NCBI RefSeq assembly: GCF_003018255.1
Contig: NZ_CP027440.1
Length of the DNA stretch: 64,000 nucleotides
Direction: 5' to 3' (one strand)
Origin: Escherichia coli
Lineage (GTDB): Bacteria; Pseudomonadota; Gammaproteobacteria; Enterobacterales; Enterobacteriaceae
The position numbers were made by a program, and so were the translations under genes. The notes under the pieces were generated by a model. That model was given only the letters and a program-made list of their open reading frames with translations. It made no database searches and was not told the DNA's origin. Shown in pieces: positions 37,041 through 53,820 of the stretch (positions are counted from its first letter, which is position 1; the number at the start of each line of letters is the position of its first letter).

Positions 37041-38453
37041 ATGGTAGATCAGGTAAAAGTCGTTGCCGATGATCAGGCTCCGGCTGAACAGTCGCTACGG
37101 CGCAATCTCACAAACCGACATATTCAGCTTATTGCCATTGGCGGTGCCATTGGTACAGGGTTGTTTATGGGGTCCGGCAAAACGATTAGCCTTGCCGGGC
37201 CGTCGATCATTTTCGTTTATATGATCATCGGTTTTATGCTCTTTTTCGTGATGCGGGCAATGGGGGAATTGCTGCTTTCGAATCTGGAATACAAATCTTT
37301 TAGTGACTTCGCTTCCGATTTACTCGGGCCGTGGGCAGGATATTTCACCGGCTGGACCTACTGGTTCTGCTGGGTTGTAACCGGTATGGCAGACGTGGTG
37401 GCGATCACGGCTTATGCTCAGTTCTGGTTCCCCGATCTCTCCGACTGGGTCGCCTCGCTGGCGGTGATAGTGCTGCTGCTGACGCTTAACCTCGCCACCG
37501 TGAAAATGTTCGGTGAGATGGAGTTCTGGTTTGCGATGATCAAAATCGTCGCCATTGTGTCGCTGATAGTCGTCGGCCTGGTCATGGTGGCGATGCACTT
37601 TCAGTCACCGACCGGTGTGGAAGCGTCATTCGCGCATTTGTGGAATGATGGCGGCTGGTTCCCGAAAGGTTTAAGTGGCTTCTTTGCCGGATTCCAGATA
37701 GCGGTTTTCGCTTTCGTGGGGATTGAGCTGGTAGGTACAACAGCTGCGGAAACCAAAGATCCAGAGAAATCACTGCCACGCGCGATTAACTCCATTCCGA
37801 TCCGTATCATTATGTTCTACGTCTTCGCGCTGATTGTGATTATGTCCGTGACGCCGTGGAGTTCGGTAGTCCCGGAGAAAAGCCCGTTCGTTGAACTGTT
37901 TGTGTTGGTAGGTTTGCCTGCGGCTGCCAGCGTGATCAACTTTGTGGTGCTGACCTCTGCGGCGTCTTCCGCTAACAGCGGTGTCTTCTCTACCAGCCGT
38001 ATGCTGTTTGGTCTGGCCCAGGAAGGTGTGGCACCGAAAGCGTTCGCTAAACTCTCTAAGCGCGCAGTACCCGCGAAAGGGCTGACCTTCTCTTGTATCT
38101 GTCTGCTCGGCGGCGTGGTGATGTTGTATGTGAATCCCAGCGTGATTGGCGCGTTCACGATGATTACAACCGTTTCCGCGATTCTGTTTATGTTTGTCTG
38201 GACGATTATCCTTTGCTCGTACCTGGTGTATCGCAAACAGCGTCCTCATCTGCATGAGAAGTCGATCTACAAGATGCCACTCGGCAAGCTGATGTGCTGG
38301 GTATGTATGGCGTTCTTTGTGTTTGTTCTGGTGTTGTTGACACTGGAAGATGACACCCGCCAGGCGCTGCTGGTTACCCCGCTGTGGTTTATCGCGCTGG
38401 GGCTGGGCTGGCTGTTTATTGGTAAGAAGCGGGCTGCTGAACTGCGGAAATAA
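37041..38453 (+). CDS. cycA: D-serine/D-alanine/glycine:H+ symporter (APC family)
   Basis: 470 aa amino-acid permease, MVDQVKVVADDQAPAEQSLRRNLTNRHIQLIAIGGAIGTGLF. Confidence 0.95.
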   Translation: MVDQVKVVADDQAPAEQSLRRNLTNRHIQLIAIGGAIGTGLFMGSGKTISLAGPSIIFVYMIIGFMLFFVMRAMGELLLSNLEYKSFSDFASDLLGPWAGYFTGWTYWFCWVVTGMADVVAITAYAQFWFPDLSDWVASLAVIVLLLTLNLATVKMFGEMEFWFAMIKIVAIVSLIVVGLVMVAMHFQSPTGVEASFAHLWNDGGWFPKGLSGFFAGFQIAVFAFVGIELVGTTAAETKDPEKSLPRAINSIPIRIIMFYVFALIVIMSVTPWSSVVPEKSPFVELFVLVGLPAAASVINFVVLTSAASSANSGVFSTSRMLFGLAQEGVAPKAFAKLSKRAVPAKGLTFSCICLLGGVVMLYVNPSVIGAFTMITTVSAILFMFVWTIILCSYLVYRKQRPHLHEKSIYKMPLGKLMCWVCMAFFVFVLVLLTLEDDTRQALLVTPLWFIALGLGWLFIGKKRAAELRK

Positions 38454-38497
38454 TCGCATTATCATGCTGGATGGCGCAATGCCATCCAGCTTTTAGA

Positions 38498-39160
38498 TCA
38501 CTCACCCGCCAGCGCGCGCGGGAATAGTACATTGTTTTCCAGACTGATGTGCTCCATCAGGTCATCAATCAGTTCATTAATGCCGTTATACATCGCTTTC
38601 CAGGTGGTGCAGGCTTCCGGCGGCGGTGTGACGTTATTGGTGGTGTGTTTGATCACTTCCAGCAGTTCGCCCGCTTCATCGTGCTCGCTTTCCATTACGC
38701 TGATTGGCCCCATTGCCTGGCTGCCCATGCCTTGTTTAATCATCGGGAAGAGAATTTGCTCTTCTTTCATCATGTGGCTGGAAAGCTCTTCATGCAGCAT
38801 AGTCAGGTATTTTGTCAGCCCTTTTGGCACACTTGGTTTGTCGGCGTGAACGCGCTCGACTTTAGTCGCTTGCAGGATCAGCTCCGGCAGTTGCTCGCGG
38901 TGGCGATCGTGGTAGCGCACGATGATATGGTCGATGATTTCTGCCAGCGGGGCGCTACGCCAGTCTTTCTCAATCGGTTGTTCAGCAAGCTTTGCCAGTT
39001 CGGCTTCAATGACGTCAACATCCAGTTCTTTACGTGCCGCCGCGCGCGCCAGCGTCTGCTTACCGCCACAGCAGTAATCCATATCATATTTACGAAACAG
39101 AGCCGAAGCGCGAGGAATAGAGAGCGCCAGTTCACCTAAAGGTTGGTCGCGATAAGCCAT
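38498..39160 (-). CDS. ytfE: Iron-sulfur cluster repair di-iron protein YtfE (RIC)
   Basis: 220 aa [33 protein letters not shown], hemerythrin-like domain. Confidence 0.93.
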
Positions 39161-39267
39161 AGCTGATACCTCATTCTTAATAAGATAAGATGCATTTTAA
39201 ATGCATCTTTATGGCAAATGCTATAACCCTTACGTAGCAGAGGCTTATTTAACTCACTGCCAGCGTG

Positions 39268-40242
39268 TCAACTTTCTGAGACAGATTCAGTTAAAGGTTT
39301 TTCTGGTTTTGCTCTGACTGCAATGACCACGCCAACCACTAACAGCGCGATACCGCTTAGCGTCATTAGCGGCGGCATTTGCTGGCGTAACAAAAAGGTG
39401 TACAGCAAGCCTGCCAGCGTTTCGAAAACAATCAGCGGCCCGAGAATCACTGTCGGTAATCGCTGGCTGGCGACGTTCCAGCAGAGTGCGCCAACCCATG
39501 AGCAAAGCACGGCTATCGCAACCATCAGACTAATAAACACCAGCGGACGGGGGCCAAAGGGTAGGGAGAAGCCCGGCGTTTGCGTATTCAGCCAGTAACA
39601 GGCGACGAGATAGCCGATGAGAGAAACCGGCAGCGTGACCAGCGCCTGCGCCGTCGCCCACATCATCGGATGTTTGTCGGGATTCTCCCGCAGCCAGCGG
39701 GCGTTGCGCAGGGCATACCATGCCCAGCAGACCACGGAAACTAACGCCAGCACGATGCCAGAGGTATAACGTGCCCAGTCAAAATCGGGGAGTCCGTGGT
39801 TTAACTCAGCAATATTCACACACGCCAGGCCGATGCCAATACAAACCAGTGCCGGGGCGAGTTTTCCCCACGCGAGTTTGCCGTCGCGCTGGCTATAAAG
39901 CAGATTGGCAAAAACGGGAATCACCACCGGCAGGGTGCCAATAATCATCGTGGAAACAGGCGCGCCAGTACGTTGAATGGCACTGGCAAGGCAGAAGTAA
40001 TAGATGAGGTTGCCCATCATGGTGAGCATCAAGGCGGTAAGCCAGTCGCGACGCGCCAACTGACGCAGACGCACGCGTCCCAGCCAGGCAATGGGCAGCG
40101 CAATTAACCCTAACGCCAGATAACGCCCCATCGACTGCAACATCGCCGGGTATTCCGGCACGATCAACGGCCCGACAAAAATAAGCCCCCACATCAACCC
40201 TGCTAACAGGGCGTACAGCACGCCGCTAATCATTACTGGCAT
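39268..40242 (-). CDS. ytfF: DMT-superfamily (EamA-like) inner-membrane transporter YtfF
   Basis: 324 aa polytopic ORF; an internal Met (MISGVLYAL) is a possible alternative start. Confidence 0.85.
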   Translation of the reverse strand: MPVMISGVLYALLAGLMWGLIFVGPLIVPEYPAMLQSMGRYLALGLIALPIAWLGRVRLRQLARRDWLTALMLTMMGNLIYYFCLASAIQRTGAPVSTMIIGTLPVVIPVFANLLYSQRDGKLAWGKLAPALVCIGIGLACVNIAELNHGLPDFDWARYTSGIVLALVSVVCWAWYALRNARWLRENPDKHPMMWATAQALVTLPVSLIGYLVACYWLNTQTPGFSLPFGPRPLVFISLMVAIAVLCSWVGALCWNVASQRLPTVILGPLIVFETLAGLLYTFLLRQQMPPLMTLSGIALLVVGVVIAVRAKPEKPLTESVSES

Positions 40243-40340
40243 CCATTGGTCTGTCAGAAGAAAGTTCAGGAAGCAGACATGATTGCTCCCGGCATCCCGT
40301 CATTATCAGAGAGGATGCGGGAGGATGCCACTTTAATTAA

Positions 40341-41201
40341 CTAGTTATTAACATTAAAAAGATGGCTTACGCTTTCGGCTAACGTTGTCGTTGGGCGGCC
40401 AATCAATTTGCTAAGCGTTTTGCTGTCATCAAACAGACCGCCTTTCGATGCGCCAACGTCAGAATCCGCCAGCATATCCGCCAGTCCATCAGGCAGTCCG
40501 ACGCTTTTCAGTGCCGCAGCGAAATCAGCTTCGCTCAGGTTTTGATAGGTAACCTGTTTGCCGCTCTGTTTGGTGAGTTCTGCCGCTAACTGTGTCAGCG
40601 TCCAGGCACTATCGCCCGCCAGTTCGTAAACCTTGCCTTCGTGACCGGCTTCGCTAATCACGCGTGCCGCAGCTACCGCATAATCAGCCCGCGTTGCTGA
40701 GGCAATTTTGCCATCGCCTGCGGCACCGATAAATACGCCGTGCTCCAGTGCTGCCGGGGCGCTGGCGAGGTAGTTTTCGGTGTACCAGCCGTTGCGCAGC
40801 AGGGTGTAAACGATGCCAGAATCAGCCAGCATTTTCTCCGTCTCGATGTGCTCATCGGCGAGGCCGAGCGGGGAGGAATCGGCATGTAGCAGGCTGGTAT
40901 AAGCGATAAATTTCACGCCGGCCGCCTTTGCGGCATTAATAACATTACGATGCTGCGGGGCACGTTGACCCACTTCGCTGGAAGAGATCAGCAGTAGTTT
41001 TTCCACTCCCTGAAGTGCAGATGTCAGTGCGGCTTCATCGCCGTAATCAGCCTGACGCACGGTAATGCCTTGTGCTGTCAGTGCCTGTGCTTTTGCCGGA
41101 TTACGAACGATAGCCACTATTTGGCTGGCAGGAACCGTTTTCATCAAGGATTCAATAACATAGTGACCAAGTTGGCCAGTGGCACCAGTAATAGCGATCA
41201 T
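40341..41201 (-). CDS. qorB: NAD(P)H:quinone oxidoreductase QorB (YtfG)
   Basis: 286 aa MIAITGATGQLGHYVIESL NmrA-like Rossmann fold. Confidence 0.92.
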   Translation of the reverse strand: MIAITGATGQLGHYVIESLMKTVPASQIVAIVRNPAKAQALTAQGITVRQADYGDEAALTSALQGVEKLLLISSSEVGQRAPQHRNVINAAKAAGVKFIAYTSLLHADSSPLGLADEHIETEKMLADSGIVYTLLRNGWYTENYLASAPAALEHGVFIGAAGDGKIASATRADYAVAAARVISEAGHEGKVYELAGDSAWTLTQLAAELTKQSGKQVTYQNLSEADFAAALKSVGLPDGLADMLADSDVGASKGGLFDDSKTLSKLIGRPTTTLAESVSHLFNVNN

Positions 41202-41289
41202 GGGAAGTCTCCATCGTTTTGTCTTGTGTTTAAATACGCTAACACTTAAACTTACTTTTAGTAAGTACGTACAAAAAGGTAAGTATGAG

Positions 41290-41670
41290 ATGAGTCAGGT
41301 TAGCCTGTCGCAACAACTGAAAGAGGGAAATCTCTTCGCTGAACAGTGTCCGTCGCGCGAGGTTTTGAAACACGTCACCAGCCGTTGGGGGGTGTTGATT
41401 CTGGTGGCGCTACGCGAAGGTACTCATCGCTTTAGCGACCTGCGGCGCAAAATCGGCGGGGTGAGTGAAAAGATGCTTGCGCAGTCGTTACAGGCGCTAG
41501 AGCAGGATGGTTTTCTTAACCGTATCGCGTATCCGGTAACGCCGCCGCATGTGGAATATAGCCTCACGCCGCTGGGCGAGCAGGTGAGCGAAAAGGTTGC
41601 TGCACTGGCGGACTGGATTGAGTTGAATTTGCCCGAGGTGTTGGCGGTGCGGGATGAACGTGCGGCGTAG
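41290..41670 (+). CDS. ytfH: HxlR-family transcriptional regulator YtfH
   Basis: ORF track 41179..41670; start at ATG 41290 (MSQVSLSQQLKEGNLFAEQCPSREVLKHVTSRWG), 126 aa; divergent from qorB. Confidence 0.88.
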   Translation: MSQVSLSQQLKEGNLFAEQCPSREVLKHVTSRWGVLILVALREGTHRFSDLRRKIGGVSEKMLAQSLQALEQDGFLNRIAYPVTPPHVEYSLTPLGEQVSEKVAALADWIELNLPEVLAVRDERAA

Positions 41671-41671
41671 C

Positions 41672-41775
41672 TGCAGGATGCGCGGCCTACGGTGTATGAC
41701 TTGTAGGGCGGATAAGATGCGTCATCATCGCATCCGCCAATAAATGCCGGATGCGGTTGATGATTTGCAGGCCGA
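41672..41775. repeat. REP/BIME-like repeats
   Basis: ggcctac...gcatccgcc...gccggatgcgg motifs between ytfH and cpdB. Confidence 0.6.
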
Positions 41776-41787
41776 AAAAGAAGTGTA

Positions 41788-43731
41788 TTACTTACTCAAA
41801 TCCACCTGATAAATCGCAAACCCGATATCATCGGTCGCGACTTTATTCATCGGATATTGCCCTTTCTCTTTAATAAACGCCGCGGCTTTATCTGATGGAG
41901 AGGTTTCGAAACGGATATCCAGTTTCTTATCGCCAGCTATTGGTGCTAAACGCCAGTTGTTATCTGCCGCCGGGTGAATTTCCCCCGCACGTTTCGACTC
42001 ATCAGCAATCCACGCTGCCAGCACCGAGCGGTTCTCATCCGGTGAAGCAAAAGCGATATGGCTGTCGCCCGTACCGGCAAATTTGCCGCCGTAAGCGCGA
42101 TAGTTATTGGTGGCAACGAGGAACATGGCGTTCGGATCAATCGGCTTGCCGTTAAAGGTCAGGTTCTTAATCCTTTCCGCATTGGCATTAACCATCTGGC
42201 ACTCGCCGTCATAACGGGCGGGCTGGGTAACATCAATCTGATAATTCACACCATCAATAACATCAAAGTTATAGGTGCGGAAACCATCCCAGTTGATGAG
42301 TGACTGTGGTTTCGTGCTGTTAGGATCAATCTGGTTAAACTGTCCGGCGGAGCACTCCAGCCACTCTTTCACCTCTTTACCGCTGGCTTTCACCACAATC
42401 AGCGTATTGGGGTAGAGATAAAGATCGGCGGCATTACGGAAGGTCAACTGGCCTTTTTCCACCTCCACATAGCTTGCCGGGTCATTTTTGCGACCACCAA
42501 CTTTAAACGGTGCGGCAGCTGAAAGCACTGGCAGTTTTGCCAGATCCGGATCGCCCTGAATGTAATGCTCGACATACGCTTTTTGCGCGTTGTTCACCAC
42601 CTGCACGGTCGGATCGTCCTGCACAAGCGCCAGATAGCTATACATATTGTCGGCAGATTTACCGATTGGCTTGCTGACGAACTGGCGTGTGGCATCGTGA
42701 TCGGCTTTGAGTGTTTCTACCAGCTTGCTGTCTTCCGCCGCGAGGGATTTTTTATTCGCGATGTCGTAAATCGGCCGTGCTTCCGCTTTCGCCTGCGTCA
42801 CCTGCCATTTACCGCTGTCATTACTGAGTTGTAAGTCGACCACACCAAGATGATCGCCCCACATGCCTGGCATTACCGCCGGAACACCATTCAGCGTGCC
42901 TTTCGCGATATCAGCCCCTTCGATATCAGCAAAATCTTTACCTGGGAAAACGGCGTGAGCATGGCCAAACATAATGGCGTTAACGCCCGGAATTTCACTG
43001 AGGTAATAAACTGAGTTTTCCGCCATCACTTTATACGGATCGGCAGACAGCCCGGAATGCGCCAGAACGACAACGACATCGGCACCTTTCTCGCGCATTT
43101 CAGGCACGTATTTGCGCACGGTTTCGGTAATATCATTCACCGTCACTTTCCCGGATAAATTAGCTTTATCCCAGCCCATGATTTGTGGCGGGACGACGCC
43201 AATATAACCAATCTTCAGCGTCTGTTTTTTTCCGTCTTTATCGACCACTTCGGTGTCTTTAATTAAATACGGTGTAAACATTGGCTGTTTGGTTCTGGCG
43301 TCAATGACGTTGGCATTTACATAAGGGAATTTCGCTCCCGCCAGCGCATTTTTCAGATAATCCAGACCGTAGTTAAACTCGTGGTTGCCAAGCGTGCCGA
43401 CGGTATAGTCCAGCGTATTTAATGCCTTATAGACCGGGTGAATATCACCTGCTTTTAAACCTTTCGCCGACATGTAATCTGCAAGCGGACTCCCCTGAAT
43501 CAAATCGCCGTTATCGACCAGTACGCTGTTTTTCACTTCATTGCGGGCATCGTTAATCAGGCTTGCGGTACGTACCAGTCCGAATTTTTCCGTGGCGGTG
43601 TCTTTGTAATAATCGAAATCCATCATGTTGCTATGCAGATCAGTGGTTTCCATGATACGCAGATCGACCGTCGCTGCATTCACACTGGCGGCAATCAGCG
43701 TGGCCAGGAGCGTTGCGCTAAACTTAATCAT
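41788..43731 (-). CDS. cpdB: 2',3'-cyclic-nucleotide 2'-phosphodiesterase/3'-nucleotidase (periplasmic)
   Basis: ORF track 41788..43740; start at [19 protein letters not shown] signal peptide, 647 aa; metallophosphatase and 5'-nucleotidase C domains. Confidence 0.93.
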
Positions 43732-43920
43732 CAGGGACATCCTTTTATCATCGGGAATACGAAAGAAAAGGGAGAATAAACGTCTTACTTATAGAACAGT
43801 GAAGAATGCCACAATTTTACGCTTTGAAAATGATGACACTATCACAGTTGGCGCATTCATTAACGATAGGGTATAAGTAAAACAATAAGTTAACACCGCT
43901 CACAGAGACGAGGTGGAGAA

Positions 43921-44661
43921 ATGTTAGATCAAGTATGCCAGCTTGCACGGAATGCAGGCGATGCCATTATGCAGGTCTACGACGGGACGAAACCGATGGA
44001 CGTCGTCAGCAAAGCGGACAATTCTCCGGTAACGGCAGCGGATATTGCCGCACACACCGTTATCATGGACGGTTTACGTACGCTGACACCGGATATTCCG
44101 GTGCTTTCTGAAGAAGATCCTCCCGGTTGGGAAGTCCGCCAGCACTGGCAGCGTTACTGGCTGGTAGACCCACTGGATGGTACTAAAGAGTTTATTAAAC
44201 GTAATGGCGAATTCACCGTTAACATTGCGCTCATCGACCACGGCAAACCGATTTTAGGTGTGGTGTATGCGCCGGTAATGAACGTAATGTACAGCGCGGC
44301 AGAAGGCAAAGCGTGGAAAGAAGAGTGCGGCGTGCGCAAGCAGATTCAGGTCCGTGATGCGCGCCCGCCACTGGTCGTTATTAGCCGATCCCATGCAGAT
44401 GCAGAGCTGAAAGAGTATCTGCAACAGCTTGGCGAACATCAGACCACGTCCATCGGCTCTTCGCTGAAATTCTGCCTGGTGGCGGAAGGGCAGGCGCAGC
44501 TGTACCCGCGCTTCGGACCAACGAATATTTGGGACACCGCCGCTGGTCATGCCGTGGCTGTAGCTGCCGGAGCGCACGTTCACGACTGGCAGGGTAAACC
44601 GCTGGATTACACTCCGCGCGAGTCGTTCCTGAATCCGGGGTTCAGAGTATCTATTTATTAA
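43921..44661 (+). CDS. cysQ: 3'(2'),5'-bisphosphate nucleotidase CysQ
   Basis: 246 aa [22 protein letters not shown]; inositol-monophosphatase-family motif [12 protein letters not shown]. Confidence 0.95.
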
Positions 44662-45208
44662 TTAATTTATGCAGCAGGTCCATCACTTGCTGCACCTCTT
44701 CCTGAGTAAGCGCCCCGTCTTTGGCCCATTGCACGCGACCGTCTTTATCCAGCACCACTACAGCGGAACTTTCTTCATCCAGCTGCCAGGCACCGCGCGC
44801 GACGCCATTGCTATCGACAATAAACTGCGACCAGGGATAAAGCTTTTTATTACTCTCCAGACTGCTGCGCACAAACATGCCGGAACCCGGAATTGCGTCG
44901 TCGGTGTTAACAATGGTGGTGGTCTGGTAACGATCGTGCGGTAACTTTGCTGATTTAATCGCTTCAATCAGCGTCGCGTTTTTCTCTTTTGCAGAGGTGC
45001 GACCAGCAATATGTTGCAGTACTCGCACTTTTCCCACTAGCTGCGCGCTGTTCCAGGTTTTGTAGCTAAACTGATCTTTATCAAGCACCAACTCGCCACG
45101 ATCGGTAATGCCAATCGGCGGCACTCGCTGACCGGTTTCGAACTGATGTGCGGAAGCCATCATCGGCAACAGCAGGCAGGTGAGTGCCAGAATCTTGCGT
45201 AGGGTCAT
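44651..45208 (-). CDS. ytfJ: Periplasmic protein YtfJ (DUF1107-like)
   Basis: 185 aa with signal peptide [20 protein letters not shown]; convergent 11-bp overlap with cysQ. Confidence 0.88.
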
Positions 45209-45532
45209 GGTGTTTCCTTCTTATGATATGCAGGTGATCCGACCACTTGGGTCTGAGTTTTAATCATATGTGCTATTTATCGAATTTCCCGCAAGTGTGA
45301 TGCCAGTTTGCGGTCAAGCGCACAAATCATATGAAAAATGAATGCTTATACTGAAGACGGCGCTTCGGTAAAAAGATAATTCTGAATAATTGTAACCTTT
45401 AGGTAAAAAAAGTTATACGCGGTGGAAACATTGCCCGGATAGTCTATAGTCACTAAGCATTAAAATTTGCGCCTCATAATAGTTGGGCCGATTGTGGCAC
45501 CGCACAGGCGTAATACTCAGCAGGAGATAACA

Positions 45533-45739
45533 ATGAAAATTTTCCAACGGTACAACCCACTTCAGGTGGCGAAGTACGTAAAGATCCTGTTCCGTGGACG
45601 GTTATACATCAAGGACGTTGGCGCTTTTGAATTTGATAAGGGTAAGATTCTTATCCCAAAAGTGAAGGATAAGCTGCATTTGTCAGTGATGTCCGAAGTT
45701 AACCGTCAGGTTATGCGTCTGCAAACAGAGATGGCTTAA
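45533..45739 (+). CDS. ytfK: Small protein YtfK (DUF1107)
   Basis: ORF track 45467..45739; start at ATG 45533 ([20 protein letters not shown]) after caggaga RBS, 68 aa. Confidence 0.85.
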
Positions 45740-45800
45740 CCAAAGTGCTATGCAGTAATAAGACGGCTCCTGATTCAGGAGCCGTTGATGTTTCTGGGGG

Positions 45801-47144
45801 TTACGCGACGCTTTCTTCTTTATCTTTAGCGTCAGGCAATTTTGGCGAAAGGGCGGTGGCCTTGCTGTCGATTCGGGTCACCAGCAGCTGGTCGATGCGG
45901 TAGTTATCGATATCCACCACTTCAAATTTGTAGCCGGCGAATTTCACCGAATCGGTGCGTTTCGGGATCTTACGCAGCATAAACATCATAAAGCCGCCGA
46001 TGGTTTCGTAGTTGCCCGACTGCGGGAACTCGTCAATATCCAGCACGCGCATGACGTCGTCAATAGGCGTGCCGCCGTCTATCAGCCATGAGTTCTCATC
46101 ACGGGCGACAATTTGCTCTTCCAGCCCCTGACCGACCAGATCGCCCATCAGCGTGGTCATCACGTCGTTGAGGGTGATGATCCCCACTACCAGCGCGTAC
46201 TCGTTCATGATCACCGCGAAGTCTTCACCTGCGGTTTTAAAACTTTCCAACGCCTCTGAAAGGGTTAACGTATCCGGCACAATCAGCGTATTGCGAATTT
46301 GTACGCCGCTGTTCAGTGCCAGGCTTTGGTTAGCCAGCACGCGGTTCAGCAGGTCTTTAGAATCGACATAGCCGATGATGTGGTCAATATCTTCATTACA
46401 GACGAGAAACTTAGAGTGCGGATGTTCCGCCACCTTATTCTTCAGACTTTGCTCATCTTCGTGGAGATCAAACCAAATCACGTTTTCACGCGGTGTCATT
46501 GAAGACGGAACGGTACGGGATTCCAGCTCAAAGACGTTTTCAATCAGCTCGTGTTCCTGTTTACGTAACACGCCCGCCAGCGCACCGGCTTCCACTACCG
46601 CGTAGATGTCATCAGAAGTGATATCATCTTTACGTACCATTGGCAGTTTGAAAATACGGAAGATTATGTTCGCCAGTCCGTTGAAGAACCACACCAGCGG
46701 GGTGCAAACGTACAGGCAGAAGCGCATCGGGTTGATGATACGCAAAGCCACCGCTTCTGGCGCAATCATACCGATGCGTTTCGGGGTTAAATCCGCAAAC
46801 AGGATAAACATGCCAGTCACTAACGAGAAAGAGAGAATAAAGCTCAGTTGCTCAGAGAGTTCTGCCGACATATAGCGGGAGAACAGGCTGTGAAAAGCTG
46901 GAGAAAATGCCGCATCACCGACGATACCGCCGAGAATCGCCACTGCGTTCAGACCGATCTGGACCACGGTAAAGAACATGCCGGGATTTTCCTGCATATT
47001 CAGAACGCGTTGGGCATTTATATTGCCTTCATCAGCCAGCAGTTTAAGTTTGATTTTGCGTGAGGCGGCAAGCGAGATCTCGGACATCGAGAAGAACGCA
47101 CTTACAGCGATCAAACAGAGTATGACTAAAATACTGTTTAACAT
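45801..47144 (-). CDS. ytfL: HlyC/CorC-family membrane protein with CBS domains (YtfL)
   Basis: 447 aa; N-terminal DUF21 TM region, CBS pair, CorC_HlyC C-terminus. Confidence 0.92.
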   Translation of the reverse strand: MLNSILVILCLIAVSAFFSMSEISLAASRKIKLKLLADEGNINAQRVLNMQENPGMFFTVVQIGLNAVAILGGIVGDAAFSPAFHSLFSRYMSAELSEQLSFILSFSLVTGMFILFADLTPKRIGMIAPEAVALRIINPMRFCLYVCTPLVWFFNGLANIIFRIFKLPMVRKDDITSDDIYAVVEAGALAGVLRKQEHELIENVFELESRTVPSSMTPRENVIWFDLHEDEQSLKNKVAEHPHSKFLVCNEDIDHIIGYVDSKDLLNRVLANQSLALNSGVQIRNTLIVPDTLTLSEALESFKTAGEDFAVIMNEYALVVGIITLNDVMTTLMGDLVGQGLEEQIVARDENSWLIDGGTPIDDVMRVLDIDEFPQSGNYETIGGFMMFMLRKIPKRTDSVKFAGYKFEVVDIDNYRIDQLLVTRIDSKATALSPKLPDAKDKEESVA

Positions 47145-47321
47145 ATCTTATCCGACCTTTCAGGCCAGATCCTCGGAAGGGGAAGTTGATTAATTTGTGT
47201 GAAATACACATTGAAAGCCGATTCGAAGAAAGTGAACCGGCATTTTCAGTGGCTAGTATAGCGTAAGGTACTGTAAAGCCGCCAGAGGGTTAAAATTCAG
47301 ACAGCTGAAAAATGAAAAACT

Positions 47322-47420
47322 GCCTGATGCGCTATGCCGAACAGGCCTACGCAGTCCCCGCAATATATTGAATTTGGACGATTTTGTAGGCCTGGCAAGG
47401 CGTTTACGCCGTATCCGGCA
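47322..47420. repeat. REP-like repeat
   Basis: gcctgatgcgctatgcc...gcctacgcag...gccgtatccggca motifs between ytfL and msrA. Confidence 0.55.
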
Positions 47421-47466
47421 TAAACAAAATGCACTTTATCAACAATCTACATTTGTACCCGTAACG

Positions 47467-48105
47467 CTATGCTTCCGGCGGCAGACAGACGCCAATTCCG
47501 CCAATTCCACAGTAACCATACGGGTTTTTATGCAGATATTGCTGGTGGTCATCTTCGGCATAATAAAACGGTGTGGCGTTAGCGATTTCCGTGGTGATGC
47601 GACGATCGTCATCGGCGGCAAGCATCGCCGCCTGAAAACGTTCCAGACTGGCGCGAGCGGCGGCATCCTGTTCTGGGGTCAGCGGATAAATCGCTGAACG
47701 ATACTGCGTGCCGTGGTCATTGCCCTGACGCATTCCCTGGGCGGGATCGTGATTCTCCCAAAATACTTGTAGCAACTGCTCATAGCTGATGACGGATGGA
47801 TCGTAAACAATGCGCACCGCTTCGGCATGGCCAGTATCGCCGGAGCACACTTCCCGATAAGTCGGATTTGGCGTATAGCCGCCGGTATAGCCTGCGGCGG
47901 TGCTGTAAACGCCGGGTAACTGCCAGAACAGACGCTCCACACCCCAGAAACAACCCATCGCAAAAATGGCAATCTCCATTCCGTCAGGTACATTGGTCAT
48001 TGAGTGACCGTTGACCGCATGCAGCGTGGCTACGGGCATCGGGGTGTTACGTCCAGGCAGGGCATCGGCGGGGGAAACCAGATGCTTTTTATCAAATAAA
48101 CTCAT
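47467..48105 (-). CDS. msrA: Peptide methionine sulfoxide reductase MsrA
   Basis: ORF track 47467..48171; start at [18 protein letters not shown], 212 aa; catalytic GCFWG motif. Confidence 0.95.
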
Positions 48106-48268
48106 GGTGTCGCTCTCCCGAAAATCGGTCATTGGGGTTAAGGTTGTAACAAGAGGCGTATTTGCACACAATAACCGCTGTGAATAGGTCTAAAGTAAAA
48201 CATAAGAAATATTTGGGGTTTAGTCTGCTTTTTAATCCATATTACTGGATTTTTGTTAAGCCGTTTAA

Positions 48269-53820
<5,552 letters not shown>

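Follow-up and report, generated by a model that had tools for sequence, protein, structure and literature searches.

The cysQ-ytfJ junction

The window, a stretch of 64,000 nucleotides of Escherichia coli DNA (assembly GCF_003018255.1, contig NZ_CP027440.1), carries on its plus strand the cysQ gene (43921-44661), coding for a 3'(2'),5'-bisphosphate nucleotidase of 246 aa, and on its minus strand the ytfJ gene (44651-45208), coding for a YtfJ-family protein of 185 aa with a signal-peptide-like N-terminus, both as given by the list of open reading frames. The two genes lie tail to tail and, as read from the sequence, their coding ends overlap by 11 bp (44651-44661, CTATTTATTAA). This segment holds the stop codons of both genes, the 3' end of cysQ being GTA TCT ATT TAT TAA and that of ytfJ, on the minus strand, AAA TTA ATT AAT AAA TAG. 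Both products are full length. CysQ is identical to its K-12 counterpart at 244 of 246 residues and is a full-length member of Pfam family PF00459 (Inositol_P; E = 2.5e-51, residues 5-233). In the same way, YtfJ belongs to TIGR01626, covering positions 1-183 of 184 with a score of 306.8 bits (cut-off 151.1), and matches PF09695 (E = 1.6e-77, 259 bits).

We considered that the overlap could be an artefact of open reading frame calling, one of the two proteins really stopping earlier and no functional overlap being present. The last residues of YtfJ do vary (HKLINK in the window, QKLLK in K-12, HKLLNK in E. whittamii), as does the length of the overlap (11, 7 or 4 bp). However, the stop codons are read directly from the DNA and no in-frame stop precedes them, the CysQ terminus ...FRVSIY is the same in K-12, and the match of YtfJ to TIGR01626 extends through position 183 of 184. 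Additionally, PGAP (RefSeq) gives the same gene ends, calling the identical 11-bp overlap in E. coli JNE23-011, in UM146 and in one O111:H8 strain; at the junction the DNA of JNE23-011 is 100% identical to the window, and the junction sequence of the other two is also the same. The chance that the overlap is artefactual is, in our judgement, negligible. The list of open reading frames, the sequence and the PGAP calls in other E. coli thus agree with the convergent overlap reported by the first-pass annotation. That annotation had also stated that no room is left for a further gene, and indeed the only open reading frames of at least 30 aa found between cysQ and ytfJ in the window are frame-shadow ones.

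Two observations concern the upstream side of cysQ. The mechanical open reading frame of cpdB (41788-43740, minus strand) has 650 aa (MSLMIKF...), compared to 647 aa starting at MIKF in K-12 and RefSeq; the gap comes only from an upstream in-frame ATG and is no real difference. The cpdB-cysQ intergenic region, just upstream of cysQ, holds a full-length match to the ES239 sRNA of Rfam (RF02756; 43732-43854, plus strand) with 157 bits for a gathering score of 62.

Comparison with K-12 and the ytfI segment

In K-12 MG1655, the gene order is cysQ (b4214, ending at 4437495), ytfI (b4215, 4437707-4438645, 312 aa) and ytfJ (b4216, ending at 4438708), and the stop codons of cysQ and ytfJ are separated by 1212 bp. 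The BLAST alignment of the window to the MG1655 locus (L001) consists of two blocks. The first, window 43401-44661 to L001 2236-3496, has 97.6% identity and ends at the cysQ stop; the second, window 44666-45600 to L001 4722-5655, has 98.5% identity and starts inside the last ytfJ codons. Between the two blocks lie 4 bp in the window (44662-44665), compared to 1225 bp with a GC content of 34.6% in K-12. As the right boundary of the K-12 insert falls within ytfJ, the protein ends differently in the two alleles: YtfJ of the window has 185 aa and the terminus ...HKLINK, that of K-12 has 184 aa and the terminus ...QKLLK. The flanks therefore align to MG1655 around an empty site: the window has the unoccupied, ytfI-less junction allele, in which cysQ and ytfJ are contiguous with no inserted DNA, and is not of the ytfI-bearing K-12 type. 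The position of ytfI between cysQ and ytfJ in K-12, as stated in the first-pass annotation, is borne out by the MG1655 annotation (b4215), and the alignment that it had proposed places ytfI exactly at the junction; K-12 is without the overlap, and its ytfI is not located elsewhere.

Higashi et al. (2016, PLoS Genet, PMC4720273, S10 Fig) present the ytfI segment as an example of a K-12-specific insert bound by H-NS, with ytfI missing in SE11 and SE15; their work predicts that the neighbouring genes would no longer be bound by H-NS if the segment were removed. The insertion that distinguishes K-12 is thus already known from the literature, and the arrangement in the window is an ordinary one. 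Around the K-12 segment a target-site duplication was looked for by eye and rejected, the left and right junctions showing only a weak likeness (6 of 10 bases).

The YtfI protein has no Pfam and no NCBIfam family. Its only match in PADLOC is a weak and partial one to Cas6b (E = 8e-4 over 40 residues), its single match in PHROGs is also weak and leads to a family of unknown function, and no relative was found in phages. The homologous proteins form 17 clusters, every named one of which is from E. coli or Shigella, with identities down to 69%, and the four matches labelled as plasmid are to non-mobilizable E. coli records, two of 4.9 Mb and two of 655 kb. Judged from these searches, YtfI behaves as a lineage-restricted orphan of Escherichia/Shigella, probably on acquired AT-rich DNA. 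Within Escherichia the ytfI copies diverge to 69-78% amino acid identity, which shows that the cassette is old and that it persists as a presence/absence polymorphism.

Frequency of the uninterrupted junction and lineage of the window

The frequency of the two alleles was determined in 5426 complete E. coli genomes, of which 5420 match the locus at all, a junction being counted as uninterrupted when a 160-bp junction query was covered over at least 80% in one piece. The uninterrupted junction was found in 3794 of the 5426 genomes (70%) and the K-12 ytfI segment in 1623 (30%), while two carry a different cassette, of 1504 bp, at the junction. These three classes account for 5419 of the 5420 locus-matching genomes. 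The carriers of ytfI include K-12, O157:H7, O145 and some ETEC and APEC strains.

From the absence of ytfI, the first-pass annotation had suggested a lineage other than K-12. This conclusion is valid, as the identities of 97.6% and 98.5% to MG1655 indicate, but the argument used for it is weak, since 70% of E. coli share the absence: as a marker it excludes only the approximately 30% of E. coli that carry ytfI, K-12 and O157:H7 among them. Nucleotide identity is the stronger indicator. Over 1.7 kb, 100% identity to the window was found only in E. coli JNE23-011, and over 14 kb (window 38000-52000) JNE23-011 and JNE112863 reach 99.5%, compared to at most 98.8% for all other complete genomes. 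These two are Japanese human isolates (JNE23-011 being recorded from Japan), and the next-best genomes over the 14 kb include wild-animal isolates and O2:H6-type strains. By its nearest matches, the window appears to belong to a lineage of E. coli from which few genomes have been sampled.

Conservation of the overlap in Enterobacteriaceae and direction of the change

For the outgroup scan, YtfJ was searched against a single representative genome of each bacterial species, and both stop codons were located in the 80 loci returned, from Escherichia, Citrobacter, Salmonella, Klebsiella, Raoultella, Kosakonia, Enterobacter, Lelliottia, Leclercia, Pluralibacter, Kluyvera, Trabulsiella and other genera. 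In 74 of these 80 Enterobacteriaceae loci cysQ and ytfJ overlap, by 11 bp (39 loci), 7 bp (28 loci) or 4 bp (7 loci), and in the remaining 6 inserted DNA separates the two genes; the overlap counts include locus L030, which was corrected by eye. The loci that keep an overlap of 4 to 11 bp span Escherichia whittamii, other Escherichia, Citrobacter, Salmonella, Klebsiella, Raoultella, Kosakonia, Enterobacter, Lelliottia, Leclercia and Pluralibacter. Since 74 of 80 species have one at this position, the overlap in the window is no chance occurrence.

As 3794 of 5426 E. coli genomes and 74 of 80 species have the overlap, the derived form is that of K-12, and the window is not the variant. The description of the locus as a strain-variable difference in the first-pass annotation stands, with one correction of its framing: ytfI is absent and K-12 does differ, but the window has the majority and ancestral state and it is K-12 that varies. 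We regard it as highly probable that the window holds the ancestral, uninterrupted junction of the two housekeeping genes cysQ and ytfJ, from which nothing has been lost, and that ytfI is a later insertion in K-12 and about 30% of E. coli, within a joint explanation that includes a hairpin at the 3' end of cysQ (see below). A 1.2-kb AT-rich segment carrying ytfI would have been inserted exactly at the junction, which would have pushed cysQ and ytfJ 1212 bp apart and rewritten the last codons of ytfJ.

The opposite direction, in which ytfI is ancestral, the lineage of the window has deleted it and the overlap is the scar of the deletion, would account for the presence of ytfI in several distant E. 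coli lineages (K-12, O157:H7, O145, some ETEC and APEC), and for a diverged ytfI in a separate Escherichia species representative (L009), which does not fit a recent gain in K-12 only. Nevertheless, 74 of 80 species, other Escherichia among them, have the same overlap with each base in register, so that a deletion would need to have re-created exactly the family-wide 11-bp overlap together with the 185-aa end of YtfJ. The ytfI segment itself, with 34.6% GC, bound by H-NS and coding for an orphan limited to Escherichia/Shigella, bears the marks of acquired DNA. We consider such a deletion very improbable and retain the insertion of ytfI into an ancestral overlap. For each individual lineage, the direction of the event is one that we infer; an ancestor of this strain could have carried ytfI once and come back to the empty allele through homologous recombination spanning the flanks. 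The result corrects a common K-12-centred view of the locus: to lack ytfI is the ordinary and ancestral condition, and the exception is K-12.

Other insertions at the same site

The six species with an insert between cysQ and ytfJ carry unrelated cargo, and no mobility gene was found in these junction inserts. In Escherichia representative L009, the insert of 1230 bp holds the diverged ytfI. E. albertii NBRC 107761 (L011) has 1504 bp with 33% GC, coding on the ytfJ strand for a pentapeptide-repeat protein of 385 aa, and Citrobacter youngae ATCC 29220 (L047) has 2120 bp coding for a radical-SAM/SPASM enzyme of 350 aa and a membrane protein of 298 aa. The inserts of two Kluyvera species are of about 904 bp, one with a Peptidase_S11-like open reading frame (L064) and the other with no open reading frame of comparable length found (L065), while that of Kluyvera intermedia (L072) has only 71 bp and no open reading frame of at least 60 aa. 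A clean duplication was found only in C. youngae, where 42 bp of the ytfJ 3' end are repeated at the flank of the insert. The simplest reason why this junction accepts inserts may be that the splitting of a tail-to-tail pair disrupts no promoter.

Some further features of these cassettes were observed. The membrane protein of C. youngae ends in a tail of Gly/Ser/Cys repeats (GGSSCGGSSC...). Locus L005 (5120-6623) likewise has the E. albertii cassette, at a site matching window 44662-44665, with a strong terminator-like hairpin after the pentapeptide gene. This type of cassette is the 1504-bp one of the 2 genomes among the 5426 recorded as E. coli, both of them SCPM strains. In the one examined, SCPM-O-B-7615, the DNA of cysQ shares only about 89% identity with the window, and these SCPM strains may therefore be misassigned or introgressed.

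A conserved stem-loop after cysQ, inside ytfJ

With no intergenic space left by the overlap, the 3'-end signal of cysQ must be contained in ytfJ. A conserved stem-loop with a 10-bp stem, UGCAGCAGGU-CCAUC-ACUUGCUGCA, is found on the plus strand at 44670-44694, 9 nt past the cysQ stop, where it coincides with ytfJ codons 172-180 (V-Q-Q ... L-L-H). The 61-nt segment folds on the cysQ-sense strand with -16.5 kcal/mol (z = -3.3), and none of 200 shuffled sequences folds as well. Over 80 distinct sequences, the helix has standard pairs in 93.9% of the cells. One stem pair, which stays paired in all sequences, is GC in 70 of them, AU in 5 and GU in 5, and is the only one to give direct covariation; five of the ten pairs are invariant.

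With regard to an intrinsic terminator, the GC-rich stem-loop shortly past the stop is present and the U run 3' of the stem is absent: the tail is CCUCUUCCU, which has no proper U-tract, and a terminator consensus scan (at least 5 T in 8 bases) did not call the stem-loop. An Rfam search of 43700-45500 returned nothing at the junction, ES239 upstream of cysQ being the only match, and in the literature on cysQ with ytfJ no paper was found on the overlap or on a terminator there. The terminator scan pointed to a terminator-like hairpin inside the end of cysQ (44629-44645), which was rejected as a conserved element: the hairpins of E. coli and of other genera differ and are not in register, one pair of the common register is broken in 30 of 78 sequences with no covariation, and the segment folds no better than shuffled sequences (z = +0.9).

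We propose the stem-loop at 44670-44694 as a candidate 3'-end hairpin of the cysQ mRNA embedded in ytfJ, a role towards which, from comparative sequence data, we lean only slightly. It could terminate transcription weakly or, after Rho-dependent termination, hold off 3'-exonucleases. The same conservation could arise with no part in the end of the cysQ mRNA, from a constraint of the protein or of codon usage on the QQ...LL residues, from a role in the ytfJ mRNA or from a role at the DNA level. CAGCAG and CTGCTG are reverse complements and also preferred Gln and Leu codons, so that a stem could result from codon choice, and the five invariant pairs are uninformative either way. The absence of a U-tract fits such a reading, as does the folding of the minus-strand RNA of the same site (-14.4 kcal/mol, z = -2.7).

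However, the other conserved Leu, Val and Gln codons of ytfJ vary freely, whereas at the five codons of the stem synonymous diversity falls to the minimum of the gene, only 8 of 200000 random sets of five codons being as low. The mean normalised codon entropy is 0.18 in the stem, compared to 0.65 over 119 conserved degenerate ytfJ codons, and the Leu codons of the stem have 0.09 and 0.37 bits, compared to 0.9-2.4 bits for other conserved Leu codons of ytfJ. The strand is indicated by the departures from Watson-Crick pairing: in the overlapped genomes, all such cases in the eight core pairs are G·U on the plus, cysQ-sense strand, and the same changes would be A·C mismatches on the ytfJ-sense strand. 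The coding copy has true core mismatches solely in the two Kluyvera species with 904-bp inserts, in which the genes are separated and cysQ has a copy of its own.

The insertion lineages also bear on this question, as a strong stem-loop persists 5-15 nt past the cysQ stop in all of them. In C. youngae and Kluyvera (L064, L065, L072), the hairpin after cysQ is of the CAGCAG...CUGCUG type but non-coding, and its pairing is kept despite changed bases; in C. youngae, the non-coding copy beside cysQ is a perfect hairpin, the coding copy having one G·U pair. Taken together, these data point to a structure that would serve the cysQ transcript and be paid for by synonymous constraint on ytfJ. An origin of the conservation outside the cysQ 3' end is a serious possibility, which we lean somewhat against.

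A broader proposal, which is tentative and which we are rather inclined to doubt than to accept, is that the cysQ hairpin has constrained the synonymous sites of ytfJ across Enterobacteriaceae and that a copy of it was duplicated or retained in at least some of the independent insertions (C. youngae, Kluyvera and possibly the E. coli ytfI cassette). If true, the insertions would be a natural experiment on which of two overlapping genes owns a shared structure.

In K-12, a stem-loop lies right after cysQ (L001:3502-3540), with a 10-bp stem GAUGGCAGAA...UUCUGCCAUC followed by CUGAUUUCUCC (z = -3.3), and a second one after ytfI (entry L001:4647-4690) reads CCCCUAUC...GAUAGGGG, followed by AAAAUUAUUUUU. 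As the K-12 segment brings its own stem-loops, K-12 cysQ again has a hairpin immediately downstream. By eye, this post-cysQ hairpin resembles that of ytfJ only loosely, and we do not claim it as a copy.

Comparison with known systems

The window shares with the K-12 locus the genes cpdB, cysQ, ytfJ, ytfK and paeA in the same order and orientation, and differs from it in that cysQ and ytfJ, which are 1212 bp apart in K-12, overlap here by 11 bp. Its ytfI-less state is that of strains SE11 and SE15 (PMC4720273).

The K-12 ytfI segment fits the type of the small AT-rich islets silenced by H-NS that are located between convergent core genes, with its 34.6% GC, its orphan open reading frame, its binding by H-NS and its lack of a mobility gene. 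The window carries no such islet and represents the unoccupied site.

Convergent gene pairs are known in which one gene has its terminator within, or overlapping, the coding region of the other, and terminators acting in both directions occur between convergent genes. The stem-loop at 44670-44694 resembles these cases in being GC-rich, in being placed a few nucleotides past the stop inside the coding sequence of the partner and, apparently, in constraining its synonymous sites. It would be a clean, small test case of how overlapping convergent genes end their transcripts and of how insertions between them preserve the signal. It differs from such pairs in that a U-tract is present on neither strand, and it is not a canonical intrinsic terminator.
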